From assembly GCA_902492325.1 (NCBI GenBank), contig CABULC010000005.1:6162-70161 (forward strand): a stretch of DNA of 64,000 nucleotides. The letters run 5' to 3'. The stretch is from an uncultured Clostridium sp. Lineage in GTDB: Bacteria > Bacillota_I > Bacilli_A > RF39 > UBA660. Shown piece after piece: positions 5,411-64,000 of the stretch (the first letter of the stretch is position 1; each line of letters begins with the position of its first letter). The notes beneath the pieces were generated by a model. That model saw only the letters and a program-made list of their open reading frames with translations, made no database searches and was not told the origin of the DNA. The position numbers and the translations under genes were made by a program.

Positions 5411-6664
5411 ATGAAAAATAGAAATGGTTTTACATTAGTTGAATTACTTGCAGTCATTGCAATTTTAGCAATACTTGTAATAATAGCGCTTCCTAATGTA
5501 ATAAATATGTACAATAAAGCGCAAAAAGAAACATTTTTAACAGAAGCAAAGAAAGTGTATAGTGAATCAGAAAAGAAGTTTATATCAAATTCTATAAGTA
5601 ACAAGCAAACAAAAATTATAAATTCAGAAGATAGTACTAAACTTGATATGACAGGAAAAAAACTTCAATATTGTGTTATTCTAAATAATAGTGGAAAAGT
5701 AACTAGTATGAAGGTATCTAATGGTAAATGGATAGCAAGTTTAGATAATAACAAAACTGTTGATAAATTAACTATAGATGATTTAGAAGAAGGAAATTTA
5801 GATAACTATGAATGTGGTAGTCAATCAGTAGATTCTAATTCTTATAATTGTACTTTTAATGGAAATATGGTACAAGGTGCCGAATTTATTGATGGTAAAT
5901 ATACCTATAGATACATGCAAAAAGTAGGATATAATGTTACTGAAAAAGGAATTATAACTTGGGTTAATATATCAACTGATGGCTGGGGAGTTAGTCTTAC
6001 TGATAAAAATAGTACTGAAATGGTAAGCGGTAAAACATGCTCAACTATAAATAATATACCAATAGTTTCAATGTCTTATATGTTTTTTGATAGTAATGCT
6101 TCTACAGTTGATGTAAGTGAATTCGATACCAAAAATGTAGTTGATATGCAAGGAATGTTTGATGGCAGTCAAGCAACAGTAATAAATGGCTTTGAAAATT
6201 TTGATACTAGTAATGTTGCAAATATGAGAGATATGTTTTATGATAGTAAAGTAGTAACTTTTGATTTAAGTAGTTTTGATACAAGTAACGTAACTAATAT
6301 GAGGTATATGTTTTATAATAATAAAGCTTCAAAATTAGAATTAGCAAATTTTAATACTAAAAATGTAACTGATATGTCTGGTATGTTTTATCAAAGCGAA
6401 GCTTCTATAATTGATATAAGTGGTTTTGATACAAGTAATGTTACTGATATGAGTTATATGTTTGAGAATACTAAAAATCTTAAAACAATATATGCAAGTG
6501 ATAAATTTATAACTAACAAAGTTACTAGTAGCACTAATATGTTTTCTAGTTCGATTAATCTAGTTGGTGGTGCAGGTACTATATATAATAGTTCTAAAAC
6601 TGATAAAACATTTGCAAGAATAGATGGTGGAACATCAAGCCCAGGATATTTTACTAAAAAGTAA
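5411..6664 (+). CDS. prepilin-type N-terminal (class III signal) protein with DUF285/BspA-family repeats
   Basis: MKNRNG^FTLVELLAVIAILAILVI: short basic leader ending in Gly, Phe+1, Glu+5, hydrophobic helix (type IV pilin/pseudopilin signature). C-terminal half has ~24-aa repeats F(D/N)TSNVT(D/N)M..MF typical of DUF285 (BspA-type LRR surface proteins). RBS AGGTGA upstream. Confidence 0.75.
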   Translation: MKNRNGFTLVELLAVIAILAILVIIALPNVINMYNKAQKETFLTEAKKVYSESEKKFISNSISNKQTKIINSEDSTKLDMTGKKLQYCVILNNSGKVTSMKVSNGKWIASLDNNKTVDKLTIDDLEEGNLDNYECGSQSVDSNSYNCTFNGNMVQGAEFIDGKYTYRYMQKVGYNVTEKGIITWVNISTDGWGVSLTDKNSTEMVSGKTCSTINNIPIVSMSYMFFDSNASTVDVSEFDTKNVVDMQGMFDGSQATVINGFENFDTSNVANMRDMFYDSKVVTFDLSSFDTSNVTNMRYMFYNNKASKLELANFNTKNVTDMSGMFYQSEASIIDISGFDTSNVTDMSYMFENTKNLKTIYASDKFITNKVTSSTNMFSSSINLVGGAGTIYNSSKTDKTFARIDGGTSSPGYFTKK

Positions 6665-14996: not shown

Positions 14997-16292
14997 TTAT
15001 CTCTTCATATTATCATTAAATGTTTCATTTTCGAATGTCATTGTTATAGTTTCACCTGATGTTTTTTTGAATTCTATTTGTGTATCGTTTGGAAGATATC
15101 TAAGAACATTCTCTAAATATCTATCATCACCGTTTTTAATTACACTTCTATAGTTTGTCCATATCAGATTAGTAGGGTCGCTTATATCACTACGACTATA
15201 TCCTGTATCTCTGCAGCACTCACTGATTACTTGATCCATGTATGCACTTCCATAGTTATAACATTGAATAGCTCTTGGTACATTATAATTTTGTTCTCTA
15301 AGAGCATTTTGAAATAACATACATCCATATTTTATATTATATTCTAAAGTACTTGCTTTTTCTTTAGTTATTGTAACTGTTTCTTCTTCGTTAGTTCTAA
15401 AATTGAATGCTGATATGTCTTCGTTATCCCAGTTCCAGCCACCTTCAATTTGTATTTGAAATAATCCAAGTCCTCCACCTGCATCAACAGTTTCAGAGTG
15501 AACACCTCTTTCTTGAGTAGCTAAAGCAAGCATTACCATTGGATCAAGTCCATATTCAGTTGCATATTTTTCAATTAAATCAAAATATTTCTCTTTAGTA
15601 TTTTGATATTTTTCGCTACCAGTTAAATCTTCTGTTTCTATAGTAAATGGATTTACTTTTTCTTCTTGTACTTCTTCTACAGGTGTAGGTGGGATTGTTT
15701 CTTTTACTTCTTCTTTAATATCCACTATTGGTGGGGTTGTTACTGTGAATTCTTTATTTATATCATCTTCGATTTCGATATTTTGAGAATAACCTACTGA
15801 AGGGTTTATATCTACGTTAGTTGCAGCTTTTGTATCAGCTTTAGAAATAAAAGATAATAACATTATAGTTGATAGAGTAAGAGCTGTAACAGTTGCAGCT
15901 ATAGTTTTTTTATTACTCTTTTTTCTTGTAACTGTTTTATTTTTACCTTTTATATATTCTCTATCACAAGTGTAATCGATAGTTTCTGTTTGATATCTTC
16001 TTTCTTGATGAGCTTTAGCTCTTATTCTTTCTAACTTTTGCTTATACTCAGCTGATATTTTGGCAAGTTCTGTAAGAGCATCATCATCAACATCATAGAA
16101 AGTTAAGATTATTGTATCTTTATTAATTTTTTCATCTATTTGTTTATATTCATCAGCAAATAATTTTAATAGTGAATTAAGTCTTCCAGGTTCCATTTCT
16201 ATAGTACCAGTTTTATTACTATTAATATCGTGAGTATAAACACATTTTAATACATTATCATAATCATCTACTATAAATCTTATCGCATTCAT
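14997..16292 (-). CDS. membrane-anchored protein with C-terminal lytic-transglycosylase (SLT/lysozyme-like) domain
   Basis: 431 aa. ~130-aa cytoplasmic N-terminal domain, one TM helix (IAATVTALTLSTIMLLSFI), Pro/Glu/Thr linker. C-terminal ...LALATQERGVHSE...GGLGLFQIQ resembles the SLT catalytic Glu and GLMQ motifs. Confidence 0.55.
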   Translation of the reverse strand: MNAIRFIVDDYDNVLKCVYTHDINSNKTGTIEMEPGRLNSLLKLFADEYKQIDEKINKDTIILTFYDVDDDALTELAKISAEYKQKLERIRAKAHQERRYQTETIDYTCDREYIKGKNKTVTRKKSNKKTIAATVTALTLSTIMLLSFISKADTKAATNVDINPSVGYSQNIEIEDDINKEFTVTTPPIVDIKEEVKETIPPTPVEEVQEEKVNPFTIETEDLTGSEKYQNTKEKYFDLIEKYATEYGLDPMVMLALATQERGVHSETVDAGGGLGLFQIQIEGGWNWDNEDISAFNFRTNEEETVTITKEKASTLEYNIKYGCMLFQNALREQNYNVPRAIQCYNYGSAYMDQVISECCRDTGYSRSDISDPTNLIWTNYRSVIKNGDDRYLENVLRYLPNDTQIEFKKTSGETITMTFENETFNDNMKR

Positions 16293-26670: not shown

Positions 26671-26728
26671 AGAGTAATCTTTACTTTTTTAATTGTAATA
26701 AAAAATTAGTATGATATAATTAAAATAG

Positions 26729-28507
26729 GTGAATGATGTGAAAAATAAAAATGGATTTTCTTTAATTGAATTGCTTGGAGTAATTGCGATAGTTGCAATT
26801 TTAACGTTAATGACTGTTCCTGCAGTTTTAGAAATATATAATAAGAATGTAATAAAGAGTATGCATATACAAGAAACTGAGATTAAAGATGCTGCTAATT
26901 TATTTGTAGAAGATTATTGTAAAACTTCAATTGATCAGACTAAGATTTGTCCTAAGAGTTATAGTACTGCAGTTAATAATAAGAAAACTGTTTGTCTTAA
27001 AGACCTTCAAAATAAATCAGATAAATATATTGATACGGTTAAATATAAAGGCTCTGATTGTAAATGATATGTTACATATTATTTAGATTCTGAAACTGGT
27101 GTCTATGGAAATGAAAAAACATATTTATTTTGTGGTAGGGGTGAAGACAATACTTATGCATATATGACTGATAGTAATTATGATCATAAAGAGTATTGTA
27201 AGTGTAGTGATGATGAGAAAATATGTGGTTCTTCTTATCCATTACTTTATAATGTTTTAAAAAATGAAGAAGAAAATGGCGGTTTAGTAAAAAAATATGA
27301 TGGTATTCATAATGATTCTTATAATGAAACTGGAAATAAAGATATATATTATTATAGAGCTGAAACAAATGATGATGTAAATAAAATATTAAATAAAAAT
27401 AATGTGCTATTTGGAAACTATTGTTGGCAAATAATAAGAACTACAGATATGGGTGGTGTTAGGTTATTATATAATGGTGAACCAAATGTTGTTGATGGAA
27501 AAAAACAATGTTATAATGATACAACAATTCGTTCAATTGGAAAATCAAAATTTAATGATGGGTATGATTCTATTGGCTATGTTGGTTATATGTATAATAA
27601 AAGTGAAACAGAAAAATACAAGTACACTTATAAAAAAATGATTGATGTTCAAGGGTCATCTTATACATTTAAATATTCTACTAGTTTTGATTATAAGAAT
27701 GGTGTATATACTTTAAAGGATGACATAAAAGAGATTAAGGCCGCTTATCCAGGCAATGTTAAAAATAGACATTATACTTGTTTAAGTGATTCTGAAACTT
27801 GTAAAAATGGAGAAATATATTATATTACTGGTTTTGAATATGATGGTGATGATTGGCATCTATACTATATAACATTGAAAAATGGAAATAGTGTTGAAGA
27901 TGCATTGAATTCTATGCTGTATAATGATGTTAATAAAGATGATTCATCAATAAAAAAATATATTGATAATTGGTTCGAACAAAAATTATTAAATTTTTCT
28001 GATTATTTAGAAGATAGTGTTTATTGTAATGATAGAACTATTATTGATTATAGTAATTGGGATTCTAAAAGTAATTGTACTTCTTTTGGTTCAGCTTACG
28101 AAACTTTAAAATTTAAAAATTATAATTTAAATAATGATCTTTATTGTACAAATATTACTGATAGATTTAGTGTTAATAATAATAAAGCTAAATTGAAATA
28201 TCCTATTGGATTAATTACTCTTCCTGAATTATATTTACTTAAAGACGGTTCCACATCTGCTCCTTATAGAGAAGGATTTTATACAATGTCTCCTTTAAGA
28301 TCCTTTAATTATAGTGAATTAGTTAATGGTTCGTTATTTGGTAACAATTATTTTCAGGCACCTAATAATTATTATTTAACTATAGGAAGTAGTGCGAGTA
28401 TAGAGACTTATGTACGTCCTGTTATAACACTTGCTTCTAATACTGAATATTTAAAAGGAGATGGAAGTTCTACTAATCCATATATTATTATTACTGATAA
28501 CAAATAA
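26729..28507 (+). pseudogene. prepilin-type N-terminal surface protein gene interrupted by an in-frame nonsense codon (TGA at 27065-27067)
   Basis: ORFs 26729-27067 and 27164-28507 are in the same frame. The first ~110 aa are ~75-80% identical to the N-terminus of the 53206 protein. At the stop position the paralogue has GGA (Gly, 53542-53544), so the change is GGA->TGA. Likely start is GTG 26738 (VKNKNG^FSLIELL) after AGGTGA. Confidence 0.7.
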
Positions 28508-49342: not shown

Positions 49343-50584
49343 ATGATTTTAAGTATATGTTCTAATCCTGAAGTGCTAGAAGTTATGAGAATTGTTAATA
49401 TGGCAATATTGATAATTAAAATAACTGTTCCAATATTATTAATAGTTATTGGTATGGTAACGTTAATGAATACAATTAAAGTTGGTAATGAAGATTTACT
49501 AGCTAAAGCTAAAAAACAACTTATTAATAATTGTATTGCAGCAATGATTATATTTTTAATACCAACTCTTGTTAGTGTAATAGTTAGAGTAAGTGATACT
49601 AATAATCAATACAGAGCTTGTTTAGATGCTGATGTAACAATGATAAATGATGCATATATATCAAGAGCTGAGAATTTAGTATCTAAAGCTGAAGAAGCAA
49701 AAACATACAATGATTATTATGCTGCTAAAAAAGCAGTAGATGGATTGAAAAATGAAAGTGATAGAGCTAGTTTTAGTTCAAGATTAAATGCTGTATATGA
49801 AATAATTAAGGCAGATATTGAAAAAAACAATAATAATGAAGATGAAAATAGTGGTGGCGTAGGTTCTAGTGATGATGGAAGCGGAAGTACTACGGGTAGT
49901 AATTTAAATGTTAGTGCTGGTTCATCTGAATATACTGGAGTAGGAAGTATTACTAAATATACTTTGTTTGTTCCAAAAAATGCCAAAGAAAATATGCCAT
50001 TGATAGTTATGTTACCTGCTAGTAACGGGGACTATAGTGCTGCTGTTAATGAATTTAAAAATATGAAACTTGAAAATGATTTAGCATTTATGATGGTTGT
50101 TTATCCTAGTGGTAACTATTCTTCACAAGCATATAGCGATATTAAAACTACAGCTGATGAAGTTGTTAATAAATATAAAATAAACAAAAATAAAATTGGT
50201 GCTTCTGGATTTAGTTCTAGTGGGACATATGTGTATCATTTAGTTGTGAATAATCAAGGTTATTTTCATAGTATGGTTCCTATAAGTTCAGGAGTAAGTT
50301 CATCGGATAAAATTTTAAAAGATAACTTAGATTATTTAAAAACATTAAATATTAAAGGTTATGGTGAAAATGGTGGAGCATATGATTCTAATGGTAAAAA
50401 ATGTGCTGGATGGACTAATTGGTCACCATCTAATTCAATGACAAGTGCATTTAATGCTTTAGGCAAATCAAATAATTTTGTTAATCTTGGAAAGATATGC
50501 CATAGTAATGTTAGAAGTTATGTTTTTAATTTAGATGAAAATAATAATAATCGTTCTGATTATATAGAATGGTTTACTAAATAG
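49343..50584 (+). CDS. membrane-anchored modular protein: shared N-terminal 2-TM/coiled-coil module plus alpha/beta-hydrolase(esterase)-like C-terminal domain
   Basis: 413 aa. First ~185 aa are nearly identical to the 58300 protein. Gly/Ser/Asp-rich linker. C-terminal ...LIVMLPASNG...IGASGFSSSG... suggests an esterase fold (weak). Confidence 0.5.
   Translation: MILSICSNPEVLEVMRIVNMAILIIKITVPILLIVIGMVTLMNTIKVGNEDLLAKAKKQLINNCIAAMIIFLIPTLVSVIVRVSDTNNQYRACLDADVTMINDAYISRAENLVSKAEEAKTYNDYYAAKKAVDGLKNESDRASFSSRLNAVYEIIKADIEKNNNNEDENSGGVGSSDDGSGSTTGSNLNVSAGSSEYTGVGSITKYTLFVPKNAKENMPLIVMLPASNGDYSAAVNEFKNMKLENDLAFMMVVYPSGNYSSQAYSDIKTTADEVVNKYKINKNKIGASGFSSSGTYVYHLVVNNQGYFHSMVPISSGVSSSDKILKDNLDYLKTLNIKGYGENGGAYDSNGKKCAGWTNWSPSNSMTSAFNALGKSNNFVNLGKICHSNVRSYVFNLDENNNNRSDYIEWFTK
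49360..49891 (+). repeat. dispersed repeat copy 1 (~530 bp, ~99% identical to 58318-58850)
   Basis: Direct comparison of the two 5' gene segments shows only ~8 mismatches over ~530 bp. Confidence 0.85.
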
Positions 50585-53160: not shown

Positions 53161-53214
53161 TTTACCTTTTTATTTTGCTTAGCAACGTGTTATAATTCAT
53201 AATAGGTGAAGCAT

Positions 53215-55113
53215 ATGAAAAATAAAAATGGATTTTCTTTAATTGAATTGCTTGGAGTAATTGCGATAGTTGCAATTCTTACTTTAATGGTTGTACCAGC
53301 TGCTATTAAAACCTATAATGAAAATGTTATTAAAGCAATGCATGTACAAGAAAATGAAATGAAGGAAGCGGCAAATTTATTTGTAGAAGACTATTGTAAG
53401 AATTCAATTGATCAAACTAAGATTTGTCCTAAGAGTTATAGTACTGCAGTTAATAATAAGAAAACAGTATGTCTTCAAGATCTTCAAAAGAGTAGTGATA
53501 AATATATAGATGGTATTAAATATAAGGGTTCTGATTGTAAAGGATATGTTACTTATTATTTAGATTCTGAAACTGGTGTGTATGGTAATGAAAAAGCATA
53601 TTTATTTTGTGGATTAAATGAAGATGGTTCTTTTGATTATGCTACAAGTAAAGATTATGATTATAAAGAATATTGTAGTTGTAGTGATGATGAAATATGT
53701 AAGGAGAAAACTGAAAGAGTTTATTGTAAATTTGATGGTGACTTGAAACAAGGCGCTGAGTATGTCAATGGTCAATATACTTATAGATATAAACAAGCTG
53801 GTGTTAGAAGTGATGATGATCTTGCATGGAATAATTTTTCAAAAGATGGATGGGGAGTACAACTTACAGATAAAACTAGTACTGAACCAGTAACTAGTAA
53901 AGTATGTACATATATAAATGATAAACCAGTTATCGCTATGTCTAATATGTATAGTGATAGTAAGGCTACAAGTATAGATTTAAGTAGTTTAAATACAGCA
54001 AAAGTTGATAATATGAGTTATATGTTTGCATCTAGTGCTGCAACTGATTTAGATGTTAGTTTCTTTAATACAAGTAATGTAACTCTTATACATAGTATGT
54101 TTAATGGAAGTAAAACAACTACTTTAGATGTAAGCGGATTTGATACAAGTAAAGTAACAAATATGGGTAATATGTTTAGAGGTGTTTTAGTTGAAACCTT
54201 AGATTTAAATAATTTTAATACTTCTAATGTTATATATATGGATAACATGTTCTTTGGAAGTAAAATGATTTCATTAGATCTTTCAAGTTTCAACACTTCT
54301 AATGTAACGACTATGTATGGAATGTTTTGGGGTTCATCAGCGACTGATTTAAATCTTAAGAGTTTTGATACAAGCAAGGTTAAATCAATGTCATTTATGT
54401 TTAGAGGTGCTTTAGCTGAAAATTTAGATTTGAATAATTTTAATACAAGTAATGTCGCTGATATGGGGGGAATGTTTGAAGGTGCTAAAGCTAAAACATT
54501 GGATTTGAGTAATTTTAATACTTCAAAAGTTAAAAATATGTATTTAATGTTTGATGGCGCTGAAGCAGAGAATTTAGATTTAACAAGTTTTGATACAAGT
54601 AATGTAACTGATATGAGTTCTATGTTTAGATTTTCAAAAGCTAAAAAAATAGATGTTTCAAGTTTTGATACAAGTAATGTAACTAGTATGTTTCTTACAT
54701 TTGCTCAATGTTCTGCGACTGAGGTTGATGTTAGCAAGTTCAATACTAGTAATGTTAAAAATATGGGAAGTATGTTTCATTCAAGCAATATAATCAATTT
54801 GGATGTAAGCAACTTTGATACAAGTAATGTTACTAATATGGCGTCAATGTTCTATTATAGTAAGTCAAAAACTTTAGATGTTAGTAAATTTAATACTGAA
54901 AAGGTTACTGATATGAGCGCGATGTTTCAAGGAAGCAATGCAGAATTATTAGATTTAAGTAATTTTAATATTGATAATGTAACTAATATGAATATAATGT
55001 TTAGTGCAGCTAAAGCAACTACTGGATATGCAAAAGATGATCCAACTGCAGCTAAGTTTAATGACAGTAGTGTTACTAAAATACCAAGTACACTTAAATT
55101 TACTGTTAAATAA
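53215..55113 (+). CDS. prepilin-type N-terminal protein with pilin-like Cys-containing domain and DUF285/BspA-family repeat array
   Basis: MKNKNG^FSLIELLGVIAIVAILTL (class III signal). ~130-aa N-terminal domain shared with the 26729 pseudogene. Then ~15 tandem ~24-aa F(D/N)TS(N/K)V..M..MF repeats. AGGTGA before ATG 53215; the track start is GTG 53206. Confidence 0.8.
   Translation: MKNKNGFSLIELLGVIAIVAILTLMVVPAAIKTYNENVIKAMHVQENEMKEAANLFVEDYCKNSIDQTKICPKSYSTAVNNKKTVCLQDLQKSSDKYIDGIKYKGSDCKGYVTYYLDSETGVYGNEKAYLFCGLNEDGSFDYATSKDYDYKEYCSCSDDEICKEKTERVYCKFDGDLKQGAEYVNGQYTYRYKQAGVRSDDDLAWNNFSKDGWGVQLTDKTSTEPVTSKVCTYINDKPVIAMSNMYSDSKATSIDLSSLNTAKVDNMSYMFASSAATDLDVSFFNTSNVTLIHSMFNGSKTTTLDVSGFDTSKVTNMGNMFRGVLVETLDLNNFNTSNVIYMDNMFFGSKMISLDLSSFNTSNVTTMYGMFWGSSATDLNLKSFDTSKVKSMSFMFRGALAENLDLNNFNTSNVADMGGMFEGAKAKTLDLSNFNTSKVKNMYLMFDGAEAENLDLTSFDTSNVTDMSSMFRFSKAKKIDVSSFDTSNVTSMFLTFAQCSATEVDVSKFNTSNVKNMGSMFHSSNIINLDVSNFDTSNVTNMASMFYYSKSKTLDVSKFNTEKVTDMSAMFQGSNAELLDLSNFNIDNVTNMNIMFSAAKATTGYAKDDPTAAKFNDSSVTKIPSTLKFTVK
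53221..53613 (+). repeat. dispersed repeat (~390 bp, ~85% identical to 26743-27135): pilin-like 5' module
   Basis: Nucleotide-level comparison of the 5' ends of the two prepilin-type genes. Confidence 0.75.
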
Positions 55114-58241: not shown

Positions 58242-58299
58242 GTATAGAATACTTATATTTTTTATGTTAAAATTTAATTATACGATAAGAGGTGTTAAT

Positions 58300-59388
58300 A
58301 TGTTAGTTATGTCTATATGTTCGGTTCCTGAAGTGTTGGAGGTTATGAGAATTGTTAATATGGCAATATTGATAATTAAAATAGCTGTTCCAATATTATT
58401 AATAGTTATTGGTATGGTAACGTTAATGAATACAATTAAAGTTGGTAATGAAGATTTACTAGCTAAAGCTAAAAAACAACTTATTAATAATTGTATTGCA
58501 GCAATGATTATATTTTTAATACCAACTCTTGTTAGTGTAATAGTTAGAGTAAGTGATACTAATAATCAATACAGAGCTTGTTTAGATGCTGATGTAACAA
58601 TGATAAATGATGCATATATATCAAGAGCTGAGAATTTAGTATCTAAAGCTGAAGAAGCAAAAACATACAATGATTATTATGCTGCTAAAAAAGCAGTAGA
58701 TGGATTGAAAAATGAAAGTGATAGAGCTAGTTTTAATTCAAGATTAAATGCTGTATATGAAACAATTAAAGCAGATATTGAAAAAAACAATAATAATGAA
58801 GATGGAAATAGTGGTGACGTAGGTTCTAGTGATGATGGAAGCGGAAGTACAGTCACAAGTGGTGGAGTTAAAAATGTTTCTGGAACTATTTATATGGGTG
58901 ACTCTAGAACTAATGGATTAAAATTATATGGTGATTTATCATCTGATGAGCAAGTATTTGCGACTGATGGTGGAGGATATAATGAATTTCTTGGACATAT
59001 AACTAGTGTTAACAATGTTTTGAGTGATGGTAAAAGCTATAATATAGTACTTAATTATGGTGTTAATGATTTAAGTAATTCATCTAAATATTGTGAAAAA
59101 TATAAATCATTTATAAACGATGTTAATTCTAAAAACAATGTATATGTAATGTCTGTAAATCCAGTTAATGATAGTGGAAGTAAATATGCTAAAAATTCTA
59201 GTATAGAATCATTTAATTCTTCTATTAAATCTTGTATTTCTGGACTTAAGAATGTAAAATATTGTGATGTATATGGAAGTGCATCAATAAGTGATTGGAC
59301 AAGTAAATATATAAGTAGTGATGCAATACATTATACAAGTGATGGATATAAATACATACATTCTAAAATAAAGTCATGTATGGGATAG
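58300..59388 (+). CDS. membrane-anchored modular protein: shared N-terminal module plus SGNH/GDSL hydrolase domain
   Basis: N-terminal ~185 aa almost identical to the 49343 protein. C-terminal SGNH blocks: block I IYMGDSRTNG, block V DAIHYTSDGY. GAGGTG RBS before ATG 58300; the track start is 58264. Confidence 0.65.
   Translation: MLVMSICSVPEVLEVMRIVNMAILIIKIAVPILLIVIGMVTLMNTIKVGNEDLLAKAKKQLINNCIAAMIIFLIPTLVSVIVRVSDTNNQYRACLDADVTMINDAYISRAENLVSKAEEAKTYNDYYAAKKAVDGLKNESDRASFNSRLNAVYETIKADIEKNNNNEDGNSGDVGSSDDGSGSTVTSGGVKNVSGTIYMGDSRTNGLKLYGDLSSDEQVFATDGGGYNEFLGHITSVNNVLSDGKSYNIVLNYGVNDLSNSSKYCEKYKSFINDVNSKNNVYVMSVNPVNDSGSKYAKNSSIESFNSSIKSCISGLKNVKYCDVYGSASISDWTSKYISSDAIHYTSDGYKYIHSKIKSCMG
58318..58850 (+). 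repeat. dispersed repeat copy 2 (~530 bp, ~99% identical to 49360-49891)
   Basis: See copy 1. Confidence 0.85.
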
Positions 59389-61826: not shown

Positions 61827-62159
61827 ATGAATGAGAGAATGGATAGAAAAAGTTTTTTAATTATATTTATAATAATATTTGTTTTAGTACTATTAGGTGC
61901 ATTAATTGGATTTTTATATAGAGATTATAATAAACTTGATGACACTACTCATAAATTTAATGTTCCTGTCTCTAAATATATAATCATAGATGGAACTATG
62001 GTGACAAGTGATATGGTAGAAATCAAAGAAATGGTTCTTGATAGTACAGATGGTATAGTTATGGACATTAATGATGTGGTTGGCAAATGCGTTAAAAATA
62101 ATGTTAAAGTTGATGCAGGAAAGGTTTTTAAAATTGATGACATTGAAGAGTGCAATTAA
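61827..62159 (+). CDS. small membrane hypothetical protein
   Basis: 110 aa, one N-terminal TM helix. Confidence 0.4.
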   Translation: MNERMDRKSFLIIFIIIFVLVLLGALIGFLYRDYNKLDDTTHKFNVPVSKYIIIDGTMVTSDMVEIKEMVLDSTDGIVMDINDVVGKCVKNNVKVDAGKVFKIDDIEECN

Positions 62160-63287: not shown

Positions 63288-64000
63288 ATGAATTTATATT
63301 TATTTGGTGATAATGAAATTATTAGATTTATTTTGCCTTTGAAAAAGATTGGTAATTTTTGGATGTCTAATAGTAATGATGAAAATATTATAAATATTAA
63401 GAGTGAAAATAATGAATGGATTATTAGTGGAAGTGAAAATGTTAAGATTAATGGTGGCAGTGAAGAAATAACATTAAAGATTAAAACATATTATGAAGTG
63501 GTAAAAGATAATGATAAATATTTATTATTTGCTGATTGGCTTGTAGATAATTCTTTTTCTAGATATAAAGTCGAATCACCAAAAGTTCAATTTGGTACTT
63601 CTAATCAAAATAATTTATCTATACCTTCTGATCATTTTAAAGATAAAGAATATACTTTAGATAAAATTAATGACAGTTGGAAAATTACTGTTAATCAAAA
63701 CTCTAATGTTTATTTAAACAATAGTAAGATTACTGAAACTGAGGTTATTCTTAATCCGGGGGATGAAATAAATGTTAATGGTTTTAGATTAGTTGTTACT
63801 ACTACACATTTTTTTATGAATAATCCTTTTAATAATTTAAATATTGGATGTTCTATAGCTGTTGATAAAATAGTACTTGACGATAAGGTAGAAGATGAAG
63901 AAATATCAAATGATAAGATTTATAAAGATGAAGATTATTTTTTAATATCTCCTAGAATTAAAAGAGAAATAGAAGAATTTGATATGAGTATAGATTCTCC
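63288..64000 (+). CDS. essC: type VIIb secretion FtsK/SpoIIIE-family ATPase EssC/YukB, N-terminal FHA-like region (5' partial, runs off window)
   Basis: AGGAG RBS before ATG 63288. Open to the window end. ...NSKITETEVILNPGDEINVNGFRLVVTT aligns with the YukB N-terminal forkhead-like domain (NGEKINANTPLKPGDEIFWNFTQMRVTE). Confidence 0.55.
   Translation, partial: MNLYLFGDNEIIRFILPLKKIGNFWMSNSNDENIINIKSENNEWIISGSENVKINGGSEEITLKIKTYYEVVKDNDKYLLFADWLVDNSFSRYKVESPKVQFGTSNQNNLSIPSDHFKDKEYTLDKINDSWKITVNQNSNVYLNNSKITETEVILNPGDEINVNGFRLVVTTTHFFMNNPFNNLNIGCSIAVDKIVLDDKVEDEEISNDKIYKDEDYFLISPRIKREIEEFDMSIDS

Follow-up and report, generated by a model that had tools for sequence, protein, structure and literature searches.

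VirB2-like pilins of the T4SS_pilin family (PF18895) are known mainly from the pilin arrays of Patescibacteria (PMC12102498; PMC12857230), and a 2025 review describes VirB2 as missing from Gram-positive T4SSs, Patescibacteria excepted (PMC12857230). Two genes in the 64-kb window (the whole stretch of DNA that was analyzed) encode proteins that share with the PF18895 pilins (PMC12102498; PMC12857230) a pair of hydrophobic helices joined by a short basic loop, as well as a Cys near the N-terminus (that of the mature protein in the pilins) and another Cys past TM2. In contrast to the PF18895 prepilins, the window proteins lack a signal peptide, are 362-413 aa long and carry the hairpin at their extreme N-terminus; furthermore, unlike in the pilins, a three-helix bundle comes after the hairpin, and a linker then leads to an enzyme of 170-230 residues. 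The two genes are single and scattered, without T4SS linkage within the window, unlike the pilin arrays. No description of a pilin-hairpin/hydrolase fusion was found in the literature on T4SS_pilin/PF18895, RF39 pilins and VirB2-like fusions. The two genes define a large protein architecture (pilin-type hairpin, three-helix stalk, linker, hydrolase), the module of which has no above-threshold match to a curated family and no informative database name. More likely than not, although with room for doubt, the products of both genes are extracytoplasmic hydrolases that are anchored in the membrane and share a lineage-specific, pilin-derived module kept alike by gene conversion. The features of the two loci are as follows.

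49343-50584, + strand: gene 1, fusion of hairpin, three-helix stalk, linker and alpha/beta-hydrolase, 413 aa
49354-49890, + strand: repeat copy 1, gene-converted module (codons 4-183), 12 differences in 537 bp from copy 2
49358-49360, + strand: codon of invariant Cys6 in the N-tail (Cys in 107 of 107 representatives)
49367-49594, + strand: two-helix TM hairpin, residues 9-84, VirB2-like pilin domain (AF2 helices 9-47 and 50-84)
49619-49621, + strand: codon of invariant Cys93 just past TM2 (Cys in 107 of 107 representatives)
49634-49834, + strand: three-helix bundle ("stalk", AF2 helices), residues 98-164, GA-like
49835-49909, + strand: Asn/Gly/Ser/Asp linker, disordered (pLDDT <50 at residues 162-183), holding the 3' repeat boundary
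49910-50581, + strand: alpha/beta-hydrolase (carboxylesterase-like) domain, residues 190-413 (AF2 pLDDT ~90-95)
50213-50215, 50366-50368 and 50501-50503, + strand: predicted triad of gene 1, S291 (in GFSSSG), E342 and H387
58300-59388, + strand: gene 2, the same module fused to an SGNH/GDSL hydrolase, 362 aa
58314-58850, + strand: repeat copy 2, gene-converted module, aligned to copy 1 without gaps
58882-59385, + strand: SGNH hydrolase domain (Lipase_GDSL_2 and blocks I, III and V)
58903-58905, + strand: Ser202 of SGNH block I, GDS, residues 200-202
59065-59067, + strand: Asn256 of SGNH block III, GVND, residues 254-257
59320-59331, + strand: SGNH block V, DAIH, residues 341-344 (Asp341, His344)

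The hairpin is homologous to VirB2-like T4SS pilins and is a remote relative of PF18895. Both window proteins match PF18895 below the gathering threshold of 26.6 bits (gene 1, 18.3 bits, E = 2.5e-3, over residues 26-80; gene 2, 20.3 bits, E = 6e-4). Within the fusion family, 13 of the 107 representatives match PF18895 at E < 1e-3 (best 2.8e-6), and matches were also obtained for 17 of 32 cluster pilins (best 3.6e-8), which in other gut Bacilli are encoded in arrays of 2-7 between Tad-like and VirB6/PrgI/VirB4 genes. The cluster pilins consist of a signal peptide, a Cys, the hairpin and a second Cys. An hhalign comparison of the module (A4) with the 32 cluster pilins (A7) gave a probability of 99.7% (E = 3.4e-26) across 90 columns and placed both Cys in register: Cys6 corresponds to the Cys that follows the signal peptide of the cluster pilins, and Cys93 to their conserved Cys past TM2. 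The initial annotation recognized no known family in the module; for the hairpin, the sub-threshold PF18895 match and the alignment to the cluster pilins overturn this assessment. A search of PDB sequences with the module profile returned chance matches only (EzrA, E = 1.2).

The AlphaFold2 model of the gene 1 protein (mean pLDDT 83) contains three stalk helices (residues 98-119, 122-133 and 138-164) and an alpha/beta fold after the linker. Linkers across the family have a median content of 45% G/S/N/D/T/P. The hairpin loop is Lys-rich (approximately residues 44-63) and, among the 107 family members, carries a mean charge of +1.5, compared with -1.4 for the N-tail and -1.9 for the segment after TM2; its charge is above that of the N-tail in 105 of the 107 and above that of the post-TM2 segment in 104. 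According to the positive-inside rule, this distribution suggests that both termini are located outside, with the Lys-rich loop in the cytoplasm. In such a topology, TM2 would function as an uncleaved signal-anchor and export everything downstream of it. Cys6 and Cys93 would then face the outside, where a disulfide probably staples the hairpin, and the three-helix bundle together with the flexible linker of ~25 residues may hold the catalytic domain off the membrane, at the cell wall or inside it. In 74 of the 107 representatives, the conserved Cys is at position 6 of the unprocessed protein, with no signal peptide; the only variant with a cleavable signal peptide (P0197) carries it directly before the Cys and the hairpin, which, like the similar layout of the cluster pilins, favors this topology.

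The C-terminal region of gene 1 is predicted to be a Ser-Glu-His esterase. A Foldseek search of the PDB with this region yielded 701 matches at E <= 1e-3, the top 50 of which are all alpha/beta hydrolases; esterases, cutinases, a feruloyl esterase and the catalytic domains of S9 enzymes are matched with E ~1e-6 to 4e-7. In the model, S291 lies between strand 285-290 and helix 292-303, whereas E342 comes after strand 339-341 and H387 after strand 379-381. These three residues are invariant across 26 homologues, down to ~31% identity. The nucleophile motif, GFSSSG, is not a strict GxSxG and the acid is Glu. The protein shares with esterase_phb/TIGR01840, the 1GKL feruloyl esterase module and LC-Est1 (3WYD) the fold and the nucleophile elbow followed by a helix, and with carboxylesterases in general the canonical Ser-acid-His order; it differs from carboxylesterases with known structures in its low identity to them (10-18%), in the G-F-S-S-S-G elbow and in the acidic residue. 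The matches to the NCBIfam esterase_phb/PHB depolymerase models are partial and score below the curated cut-offs (18.6 vs 107.85 bits for TIGR01840 and 33.4 vs 150 bits for NF050058), so that gene 1 is not filed in this family and is only a distant relative. Public assemblies contain the same protein without any change (P0160), as well as 28 population variants of it.

For gene 2, the true start is most likely the ATG at 58300 (MLVMSICS, preceded by AGAGGTG) rather than the first in-frame ATG at 58264, judging from the orthologues and 32 population variants, all of which begin there. A protein 99% identical to that of gene 2 (P0191) is encoded on an independent 18-kb scaffold. The Lipase_GDSL_2 match of gene 2 (25.8 bits, E = 1.7e-5) is below the 32.9-bit cut-off, and precomputed PF13472 matches exist for three orthologues (P0194-P0196). 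As in the SGNH/GDSL hydrolases, the GDS, GxND and DxxH blocks are all present. The domain organization described in the initial annotation is borne out by these results: the two-TM hairpin, the helical region and the Gly/Ser/Asp linker correspond to the AlphaFold2 helices and the disordered stretch, the domains downstream of the module are indeed unrelated (esterase-like vs GDSL/SGNH), and the proposal of an SGNH hydrolase at 58300 agrees with the Lipase_GDSL_2 match and the catalytic blocks.

The two genes belong to a large, unannotated module family that is found only in uncultured gut Bacilli, with several paralogs per genome; the module has matches at E <= 1e-10 in at least 281 clusters (50% identity). 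The C-termini of the 107 representatives include M23, esterase, GDSL, M15_4/VanY, C39_2, CHAP, NlpC/P60, glucosaminidase, NAGPA and other domains, that is, at least 15 kinds of hydrolases among which peptidoglycan hydrolases predominate. Fusion genes are located in housekeeping contexts (pyk/trmL, LbH/cadC, recX, nusA-infB), and the neighbors of the window genes are those for an LbH transferase, cadC, pyk and trmL. A short CpaB-like ORF (61827-62159) is the sole match in the window to the neighbor families of the cluster pilins.

The two copies of the module lie at a fixed offset of 8960 nt and are 97.8% identical. Only 6 of the differences fall within the core of the repeat (49382-49890), and a stretch of 351 bp (49425-49775) is a 100% match between the copies. 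Identity is lost sharply at both edges. The 5' edge coincides with codon 4-5 of each gene, inside the coding sequence, and hence the RBS and promoter regions of the two genes are unrelated; promoter and terminator scans near both genes gave background levels only in this 26% GC DNA. The 3' edge is at 49890, within the Gly/Ser linker, just past "...GSGST". The near-identity of the two copies was already recognized in the initial annotation, with ~8 differences and 99% identity; the near-identity stands, although these figures overstate it slightly, and the coordinate pairs were off by 1-2 nt. An HMM search of all six-frame ORFs detected no third copy of the module in the window, and no third paralog with >90% identity to the window module was found.

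Comparison with sister genomes shows that both loci are old and syntenic and that the module alone has been homogenized. In the sister genomes, modules are 90% identical at the esterase-type locus and 92-95% identical at the SGNH-type locus, vs 80-83% between the esterase and SGNH modules inside one genome. The window modules, in contrast, are 97.9% identical to each other and 76-82% identical to either orthologue set; of the two sets, the SGNH-type orthologues are the nearer (80-82%, vs 76% for the esterase type), with ~20% distance from both. The flanks are 90-98% identical to the orthologues, and the drop is confined to the module: for copy 1, flanks with 90-95% identity give way to 52-84% precisely within 49354-49890, and for copy 2, compared with three orthologous loci (L009, L010 and L011), identity falls from 92-98% outside to 64-88% within the module. 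At the nucleotide level, the module of the window lineage is ~20% diverged from the orthologues vs 5-10% for the flanks. Quartet sites tell the same story, with 43 sites grouping by locus vs 6 by genome among the sister genomes, and 2-3 by locus vs 54-56 by genome when the window genome is included. Within the population of the window lineage, 8 module sites vary in both paralogs between one and the same pair of residues, and consistent differences between the paralogs are limited to 2 sites, one fixed (172) and the other with a single exception (site 8, P0387). Paralog pairs from same-sized contigs differ by 2, 2, 2, 3 and 5 residues. Together, the orthologue comparison and the polymorphisms common to both paralogs demonstrate conversion, and the shared polymorphisms imply repeated exchange: the near-identity results from gene conversion that is frequent and continues to act between the two loci, at a distance of 9 kb. 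The converted tracts start near codon 4 and extend as far as the low-complexity linker. Of the two origins originally proposed, very recent duplication or gene conversion, the latter is thus supported by the orthologues and the shared polymorphisms, whereas the former is incompatible with the age and synteny of the loci.

As rival accounts of the near-identity, a chimeric assembly and a one-off, very recent duplication with no exchange afterwards both appear extremely improbable. The repeat does trouble short-read assemblers, as indicated by the scaffold of one strain (L090) that ends inside it, at window position 49783, and this break is what speaks for such an account. However, each junction is crossed by independent assemblies of different strains: L089, from a strain 98.9% identical, covers gene 1 plus both flanks, and L090 (98.5% identical) covers gene 2. 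Moreover, when clustered at 90%, gene 1 and gene 2 have members on contigs of the same sizes (75152, 75524, 76949, 76994, 78561 and 78858), which implies that both genes lie on one contig in many assemblies, and dozens of 75-79 kb contigs hold both. The repeat is therefore not an assembly artefact, and the concern about a chimeric assembly raised at the outset can be dismissed. As for a duplication, both loci are syntenic in the sister genomes, where the modules have diverged, and polymorphisms shared by the paralogs require repeated exchange.

The ancestry of the hairpin raises the alternative that it is still a working pilin, extracted by a chromosomal T4SS or Tad-like machine encoded elsewhere in the genome that builds a pilus or surface fibre, with the hydrolases decorating or tipping the filament or passing to neighboring cells and cutting foreign or own wall. 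We regard this as unlikely, although not negligibly so. The homology to arrayed pilins encoded next to Tad-like and VirB6/PrgI/VirB4 genes is clear, and in one such cluster (L054) some of the hairpin proteins themselves are fused to domains of peptidoglycan hydrolases (NlpC/P60 and Amidase_3). The pilins of F-type pili have both termini pointing outward and can display C-terminal extensions, a precedent that counts for a working pilin. The VirB2-like arrays of Patescibacteria, which are essential for the epibiotic lifestyle (PMC12857230, PMC12102498), count for it as well. The genomic data, however, point in the other direction. Neighbors of the VirB4, VirB6, PrgI or Tad families are found within 6 kb at none of the 41 loci with the N-terminal hairpin architecture of the window genes, in contrast to 36 short-pilin loci where they are present, and the window contains no homologues of VirB4, VirB6 or PrgI. 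The 10 closest modules served as the query of the genome scan. Judging by record titles in a sample of 80 loci, no assembly contains both the fusion type and the cluster type, a weak observation that is limited by the search pattern. A VirB4 profile search, saturated by more than 7300 proteins of the "Mycoplasma sp. CAG:472" type, says little either way: among the 120 listed, none matched the contigs of the gene 1 orthologues by size. Against a working pilin, the fusion proteins also possess a helical stalk that is absent from the cluster pilins, a helical pilus lattice would hardly accommodate a C-terminal load of 230-330 residues on every subunit, and the genes are scattered among housekeeping genes, with stable orthologues. 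A broader version of this idea, in which gut Bacilli with reduced genomes (MAGs of the RF39-like and related "Mollicutes/Tenericutes" groups) encode on their chromosomes a T4SS/Tad system like that of Patescibacteria, with VirB2-like pilin arrays and with the window fusions as its enzyme-bearing pilins or clients, is in our judgment a little more doubtful still; if true, it would mean that wall-cutting and de-esterifying enzymes are placed on a filament or on neighboring cells and that conversion keeps the pilin modules compatible with one machine.

One N-terminal module is combined with no fewer than 15 unrelated families of hydrolases, a set reminiscent of the effector repertoires known from antibacterial systems. 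Together with recombination boundaries located exactly at the module edges, this could suggest a polymorphic-toxin-like system in which the module is a trafficking domain onto which variable C-terminal antibacterial effectors (wall hydrolases and lipase- or esterase-type enzymes) recombine. This seems quite improbable given that no immunity-like gene follows either gene (the cadC/HMA/cadA operon and trmL are located directly downstream), that the C-terminal domains are kept at the same loci in at least 4 sister genomes with 90-97% nucleotide identity and conserved synteny, that the exchanged part is the module and not the "toxin", and that an anchor of two TM helices that lacks a cleavage site would keep the protein on the cell that makes it. 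The holin-like role entertained in the initial annotation, under which the TM helices would oligomerize and release or activate the fused lytic enzyme, has hardly any probability left: the likeness is superficial, a two-TM hairpin beside hydrolase domains, and it is countered by the homology of the hairpin to T4SS pilins, the housekeeping chromosomal context, a charge distribution that places the enzyme outside with no pore needed, and the presence of esterase and SGNH domains that are not typical of endolysins. No holin PHROG was matched at E <= 0.1, and tblastn gave no matches in 50,697 phage records and 72,556 plasmids.

The module is most likely a pilin-derived membrane anchor that displays ecto-enzymes, which is in line with the initial proposal of a targeting or anchoring module on two unrelated hydrolases. 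Such a module would serve anchoring rather than pilus assembly, exposing a Ser-Glu-His esterase in the case of gene 1 and an SGNH esterase in the case of gene 2, whereas its relatives would instead expose M23, M15/VanY, CHAP, NlpC/P60, glucosaminidase and C39-like domains. The putative substrates of the window enzymes are ester bonds of the cell envelope or other ester bonds. The hairpin fusion appears to be the standard tether for wall hydrolases and esterases in a group of uncultured gut Bacilli, and its recognition helps annotate thousands of "hypothetical proteins" from gut metagenomes. If the VirB2-like clusters of Bacilli, found in MAGs of the Firmicutes lineage, are confirmed, the statement of the review on the absence of VirB2 needs to be revised, and the fusion proteins would offer a way to study such pilins in monoderm bacteria.

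Among the known systems, the hydrolases of Gram-positive T4SSs (the VirB1-like PrgK, pIP501 TraG, CwlT and TcpG) resemble the window family in having an N-terminal TM tether and in the enzyme families involved (CHAP, NlpC/P60, M23 and glucosaminidase/lytic transglycosylase; for the roles of these families, see the references in PMC12102498). These VirB1-like hydrolases are encoded in conjugative elements, serve one machine and are attached via single TM or lipoprotein anchors unrelated to pilins; in contrast, the window family is encoded on the chromosome by several paralogs per genome, and esterases are among its members. The evolution of the window pair is best compared with the concerted evolution of surface proteins, such as adhesin and antigen families, in which tract boundaries are similarly sharp and located at domain edges, paralogs within a genome are closer to each other than orthologues between genomes, and polymorphisms are shared. 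No sign of antigenic-variation cassettes or silent copies was detected in the window. Unlike in adhesin and antigen conversion, the anchoring module alone is homogenized here, whereas the catalytic domains have unrelated folds; the window pair is a clean natural case of concerted evolution that is limited to a single domain, in genes with nothing else in common, and the population data show continuing exchange.

The repeat found in the initial annotation links two genes that encode different hydrolases behind a common 5' module:

Gene 1, 49343-50584: 413 aa, module followed by an esterase-like alpha/beta-hydrolase
Gene 2, most likely start at ATG 58300 (a position common to all orthologues and population variants): 362 aa, module followed by an SGNH/GDSL hydrolase

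The two copies (49354-49890 and 58314-58850) differ at 12 of 537 positions, an identity of 97.8% obtained both by direct alignment and by comparison without gaps at an offset of 8960; the near-identity noted initially stands, with the original figures of about 8 differences and 99% being slightly optimistic. The central 351 bp (49425-49775) are free of differences, and six of the 12 fall within the first 28 nt, adjoining the 5' boundary. Similarity starts at codon 4-5 in both genes, so that neither the upstream DNA nor the ribosome-binding sites are related, and ends sharply within the Gly/Ser linker. Comparison of a module HMM with six-frame ORFs of the window revealed no third copy.

A chimeric assembly, against which a check had been proposed, is rejected. 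Both junctions are spanned by independent assemblies from two further samples: L089, a 4.7-kb contig (98.9% identity to the window, 53 mismatches), covers gene 1 with both flanks, and L090, an 18-kb scaffold (98.5% identity), covers gene 2 with both flanks. Position 1 of L090 corresponds to window position 49783, inside the repeat and 108 bp short of the 3' end of the first copy, which indicates that the 537-bp repeat breaks short-read assemblies. Protein clusters at 90% identity include 28 variants of gene 1 and 32 of gene 2, and variants of both are encoded on contigs equal in size (75152, 75524, 76949, 76994, 78561 and 78858), implying that many independent assemblies carry the two genes on a single contig. 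The polymorphisms common to the paralogs (see below) likewise argue against an artefact.

The near-identity of the copies has an ordinary cause. The window is a stretch of ordinary chromosome (leuS, rpoBC, ffh, pyk, trmL; ~26% GC), and both loci are syntenic in sister genomes (gene 1 in L012 and L013, gene 2 in L009, L010 and L011), where the modules are diverged and group by locus, with 90% mutual identity for the esterase type and 92-95% for the SGNH type vs 80-83% between the two types inside one sister genome. Between the window modules identity is 97.9%, vs 76-82% with either set of orthologues. In sliding comparisons, flanks and catalytic domains show 90-98% identity to orthologues, and identity drops to 52-88% solely inside 49350-49900 and 58300-58880. 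Quartet site patterns for two sister genomes group by locus at 43 sites vs 6 by genome; when the window genome is included, 2-3 sites group by locus vs 54-56 by genome. The population variants are the decisive evidence for exchange between the paralogs: at eight module positions (28, 68, 69, 99, 107, 119, 145 and 150), the identical residue pair is polymorphic in both, position 172 alone is fixed for a different residue in each, and position 8 differs with a single exception. Size-matched contig pairs differ at 2, 2, 2, 3 and 5 residues, vs a mean of 5.7 over all pairings. The exception at position 8, gene 1 variant P0387 (compare window 49343-49365), opens with the gene 2-type N-terminus MLVMSICSV, not MILSICSN, indicating that in some strains the conversion tract extends to the start codon.

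Of the two origins put forward initially, a single very recent duplication is contradicted by the syntenic, diverged sister loci and by the shared polymorphisms, and gene conversion is borne out by the same polymorphisms together with the orthologue comparison and the quartet sites. Judging from these sequence patterns, the likeness of the modules is concerted evolution through repeated gene conversion, and the tract ends are the gene start and the low-complexity linker. The homogenised sequence is ~20% diverged from every sampled orthologue, among which no donor was found.

The gene 1 enzyme (residues 190-413) is modelled as an alpha/beta hydrolase fold with pLDDT >90 and resembles esterases, cutinases, a feruloyl esterase module and S9 catalytic domains at 10-18% identity; NCBIfam adds only weak PHB-depolymerase/esterase similarity. 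Ser291 (GFSSSG, after strand 285-290), Glu342 (after 339-341) and His387 (after 379-381) are invariant in 26 homologues. The SGNH blocks of gene 2 (GDS, GVND and DAIH) are all present, and both enzymes look catalytically competent. Since peptidoglycan hydrolases make up most of the relatives, the substrates may reasonably be guessed to be esters of the cell envelope, for instance O-acetyl groups.

Searching 1.84 billion representatives exhaustively with phmmer retrieved 2388 proteins at E <= 1e-3, of which 281 reach E <= 1e-10. The module occupies residues 1-160 in almost all of the top 150 matches, proteins of 150-880 aa. The C-termini of 107 representatives include Peptidase_M23 (12), esterases and alpha/beta hydrolases (at least 11), GDSL (10), M15_4 (7), Peptidase_C39_2 (6), CHAP (4), NlpC/P60 (4), glucosaminidase (3), NAGPA (3), VanY (2) and other hydrolases, one each. 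Several paralogs per genome occur in the host MAGs, which come from uncultured gut bacteria and are labelled Bacilli, Mollicutes, Tenericutes or Erysipelotrichaceae. Names are mostly absent from the source records, the few present being 'hypothetical protein'; NCBIfam has no curated model for the module, the searchable literature yielded no description of this architecture, and it appears to be undescribed so far. A paralog in the 'Mollicutes bacterium W3P13.010' MAG (L031:5940-7500), apparently C39-like, carries frameshifts or stops just past TM1 and is probably a pseudogene.

AlphaFold2 models of the full protein (pLDDT 83) and of the module alone (pLDDT 80) agree on a long hairpin of helices 9-47 and 50-84, a short helix that contains Cys93, a bundle of three helices (98-164) and a disordered Asn/Gly/Ser/Asp linker (about 162-189). 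Cys6, Pro74 and Cys93 are invariant in the 107 representatives. Net charge is +1.5 in the inter-helix loop, which has about 3.9 Lys/Arg, vs -1.4 in the N-tail and -1.9 in the segment after TM2, a pattern seen in at least 104 of the 107. By the positive-inside rule, the loop would be cytoplasmic and both ends outside; TM2 would then be a signal-anchor for the enzyme domain, with both cysteines on the outer side, where they might form a disulfide staple. In the 582-aa relative P0197, a cleavable signal peptide directly precedes the Cys and the hairpin, an arrangement like that of true prepilins and one that fits this orientation; an extra domain and a gene 1-type esterase domain follow. Four proteins of 1100-2000 aa (P0026, P0079, P0119 and P0135) contain 8-17 tandem three-helix units (query residues about 96-160), so the stalk domain is also used repetitively in giant surface proteins.

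Three further genes of the window carry the type IV prepilin N-terminal methylation motif, N_methyl (5411-6664; 26729-27067 with 27164-28507, perhaps one gene that is split or frameshifted; 53206-55113), two of them with DUF285 repeats. Segments 26724-27023 and 53201-53500 are 84% identical and are a second instance of a common 5' module on differing C-termini. The 431-aa product of 14997-16292 (minus strand) has a TM segment in its middle and an SLT/lysozyme-like domain at the C-terminus; it is a further wall hydrolase tethered to the membrane, by an anchor unrelated to the module. A gene extending beyond the window (~63289-64000; L090:13507-18066) encodes a 1519-aa FtsK/SpoIIIE-family protein that, by size, would fit a candidate EssC-type (type VII secretion) ATPase.

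The hairpin is related to pilins. Both window proteins give sub-threshold matches to T4SS_pilin (PF18895), a family of VirB2-like pilins known chiefly from Patescibacteria (PMC12102498), and in a scan of 80 related loci the setting of the hairpin differs in the more distant ones. There, arrays of 2-7 pilins of 105-190 aa (signal peptide, Cys, hairpin, Cys-x2-Cys) are flanked on one side by Tad-like genes (CpaB/RcpC-like, T2SSE ATPase, membrane proteins) and on the other by TrbL/VirB6-like, PrgI/VirB3-like and DUF87/TraG-P-loop VirB4-like ATPase genes. PF18895 matches 17 of 32 cluster pilins (best 3.6e-8), and a profile-profile comparison aligns the window-type module with them over 90 columns, including both cysteines (99.7% probability, E = 3.4e-26).

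We favor, with reasonable though not full confidence, a pilin-derived hairpin that would serve as a membrane anchor with both ends outside, the stalk and tether displaying hydrolases on the cell surface, and the anchor being homogenised between paralogs by gene conversion. The main rival, in which a T4SS/Tad-like machine still acts on the hairpin and a filament bears the enzymes, draws on the same pilin relationship and seems unlikely. There is a clean division between the two settings: the hairpin of 41 loci begins no later than about residue 20 (usually 1-7), nearly always followed by stalk and enzyme domain, and none of the 41 has T4SS/Tad neighbours; in 36 it follows a signal peptide or ends a 240-580 aa protein, always inside T4SS/Tad-like clusters. 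The window encodes no VirB4, VirB6 or PrgI homologues. A 110-aa membrane-anchored protein (61827-62159) resembles the N-terminal part of the clusters' CpaB/RcpC-like protein (blastp E = 2.6e-6), with no other cluster genes nearby. A polymorphic toxin would account for a single N-terminus with many C-termini, but immunity genes are missing and the C-termini are stable at each locus, and we regard this reading as improbable, somewhat less likely than the main rival. The holin-like hairpin suggested initially was rejected.

The conserved chromosomal cluster is present in MAGs of uncultured gut Bacilli (L042-L088), including 'Mycoplasma sp. CAG:472' and 'Firmicutes bacterium CAG:884':

Cluster examples: L050:378-12244; L044:959-11982; L059:92-12646; L076:56-12265

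Its order is CpaB-like, T2SSE ATPase, two membrane proteins, two small TM proteins, an uncharacterised 330-aa protein, 2-7 VirB2-like pilins (PF18895), VirB6/TrbL-like, PrgI/VirB3-like, an uncharacterised 190-aa protein and a VirB4-like ATPase, the latter with 68-76% identity across genomes and >7300 variants in the protein database. Two long cluster proteins carry NlpC/P60 or Amidase_3 ahead of the hairpin, as seen inside one cluster (L054:2355-4364), where proteins of ~330 aa combine an N-terminal Amidase_3-like or NlpC/P60 domain with a C-terminal pilin hairpin, the opposite domain order to that of the window genes. According to a 2025 review, VirB2 is absent from Gram-positive T4SSs, Patescibacteria excepted (PMC12857230); the VirB2-like arrays beside VirB4, VirB6 and PrgI in these Firmicutes-lineage MAGs run counter to that statement.
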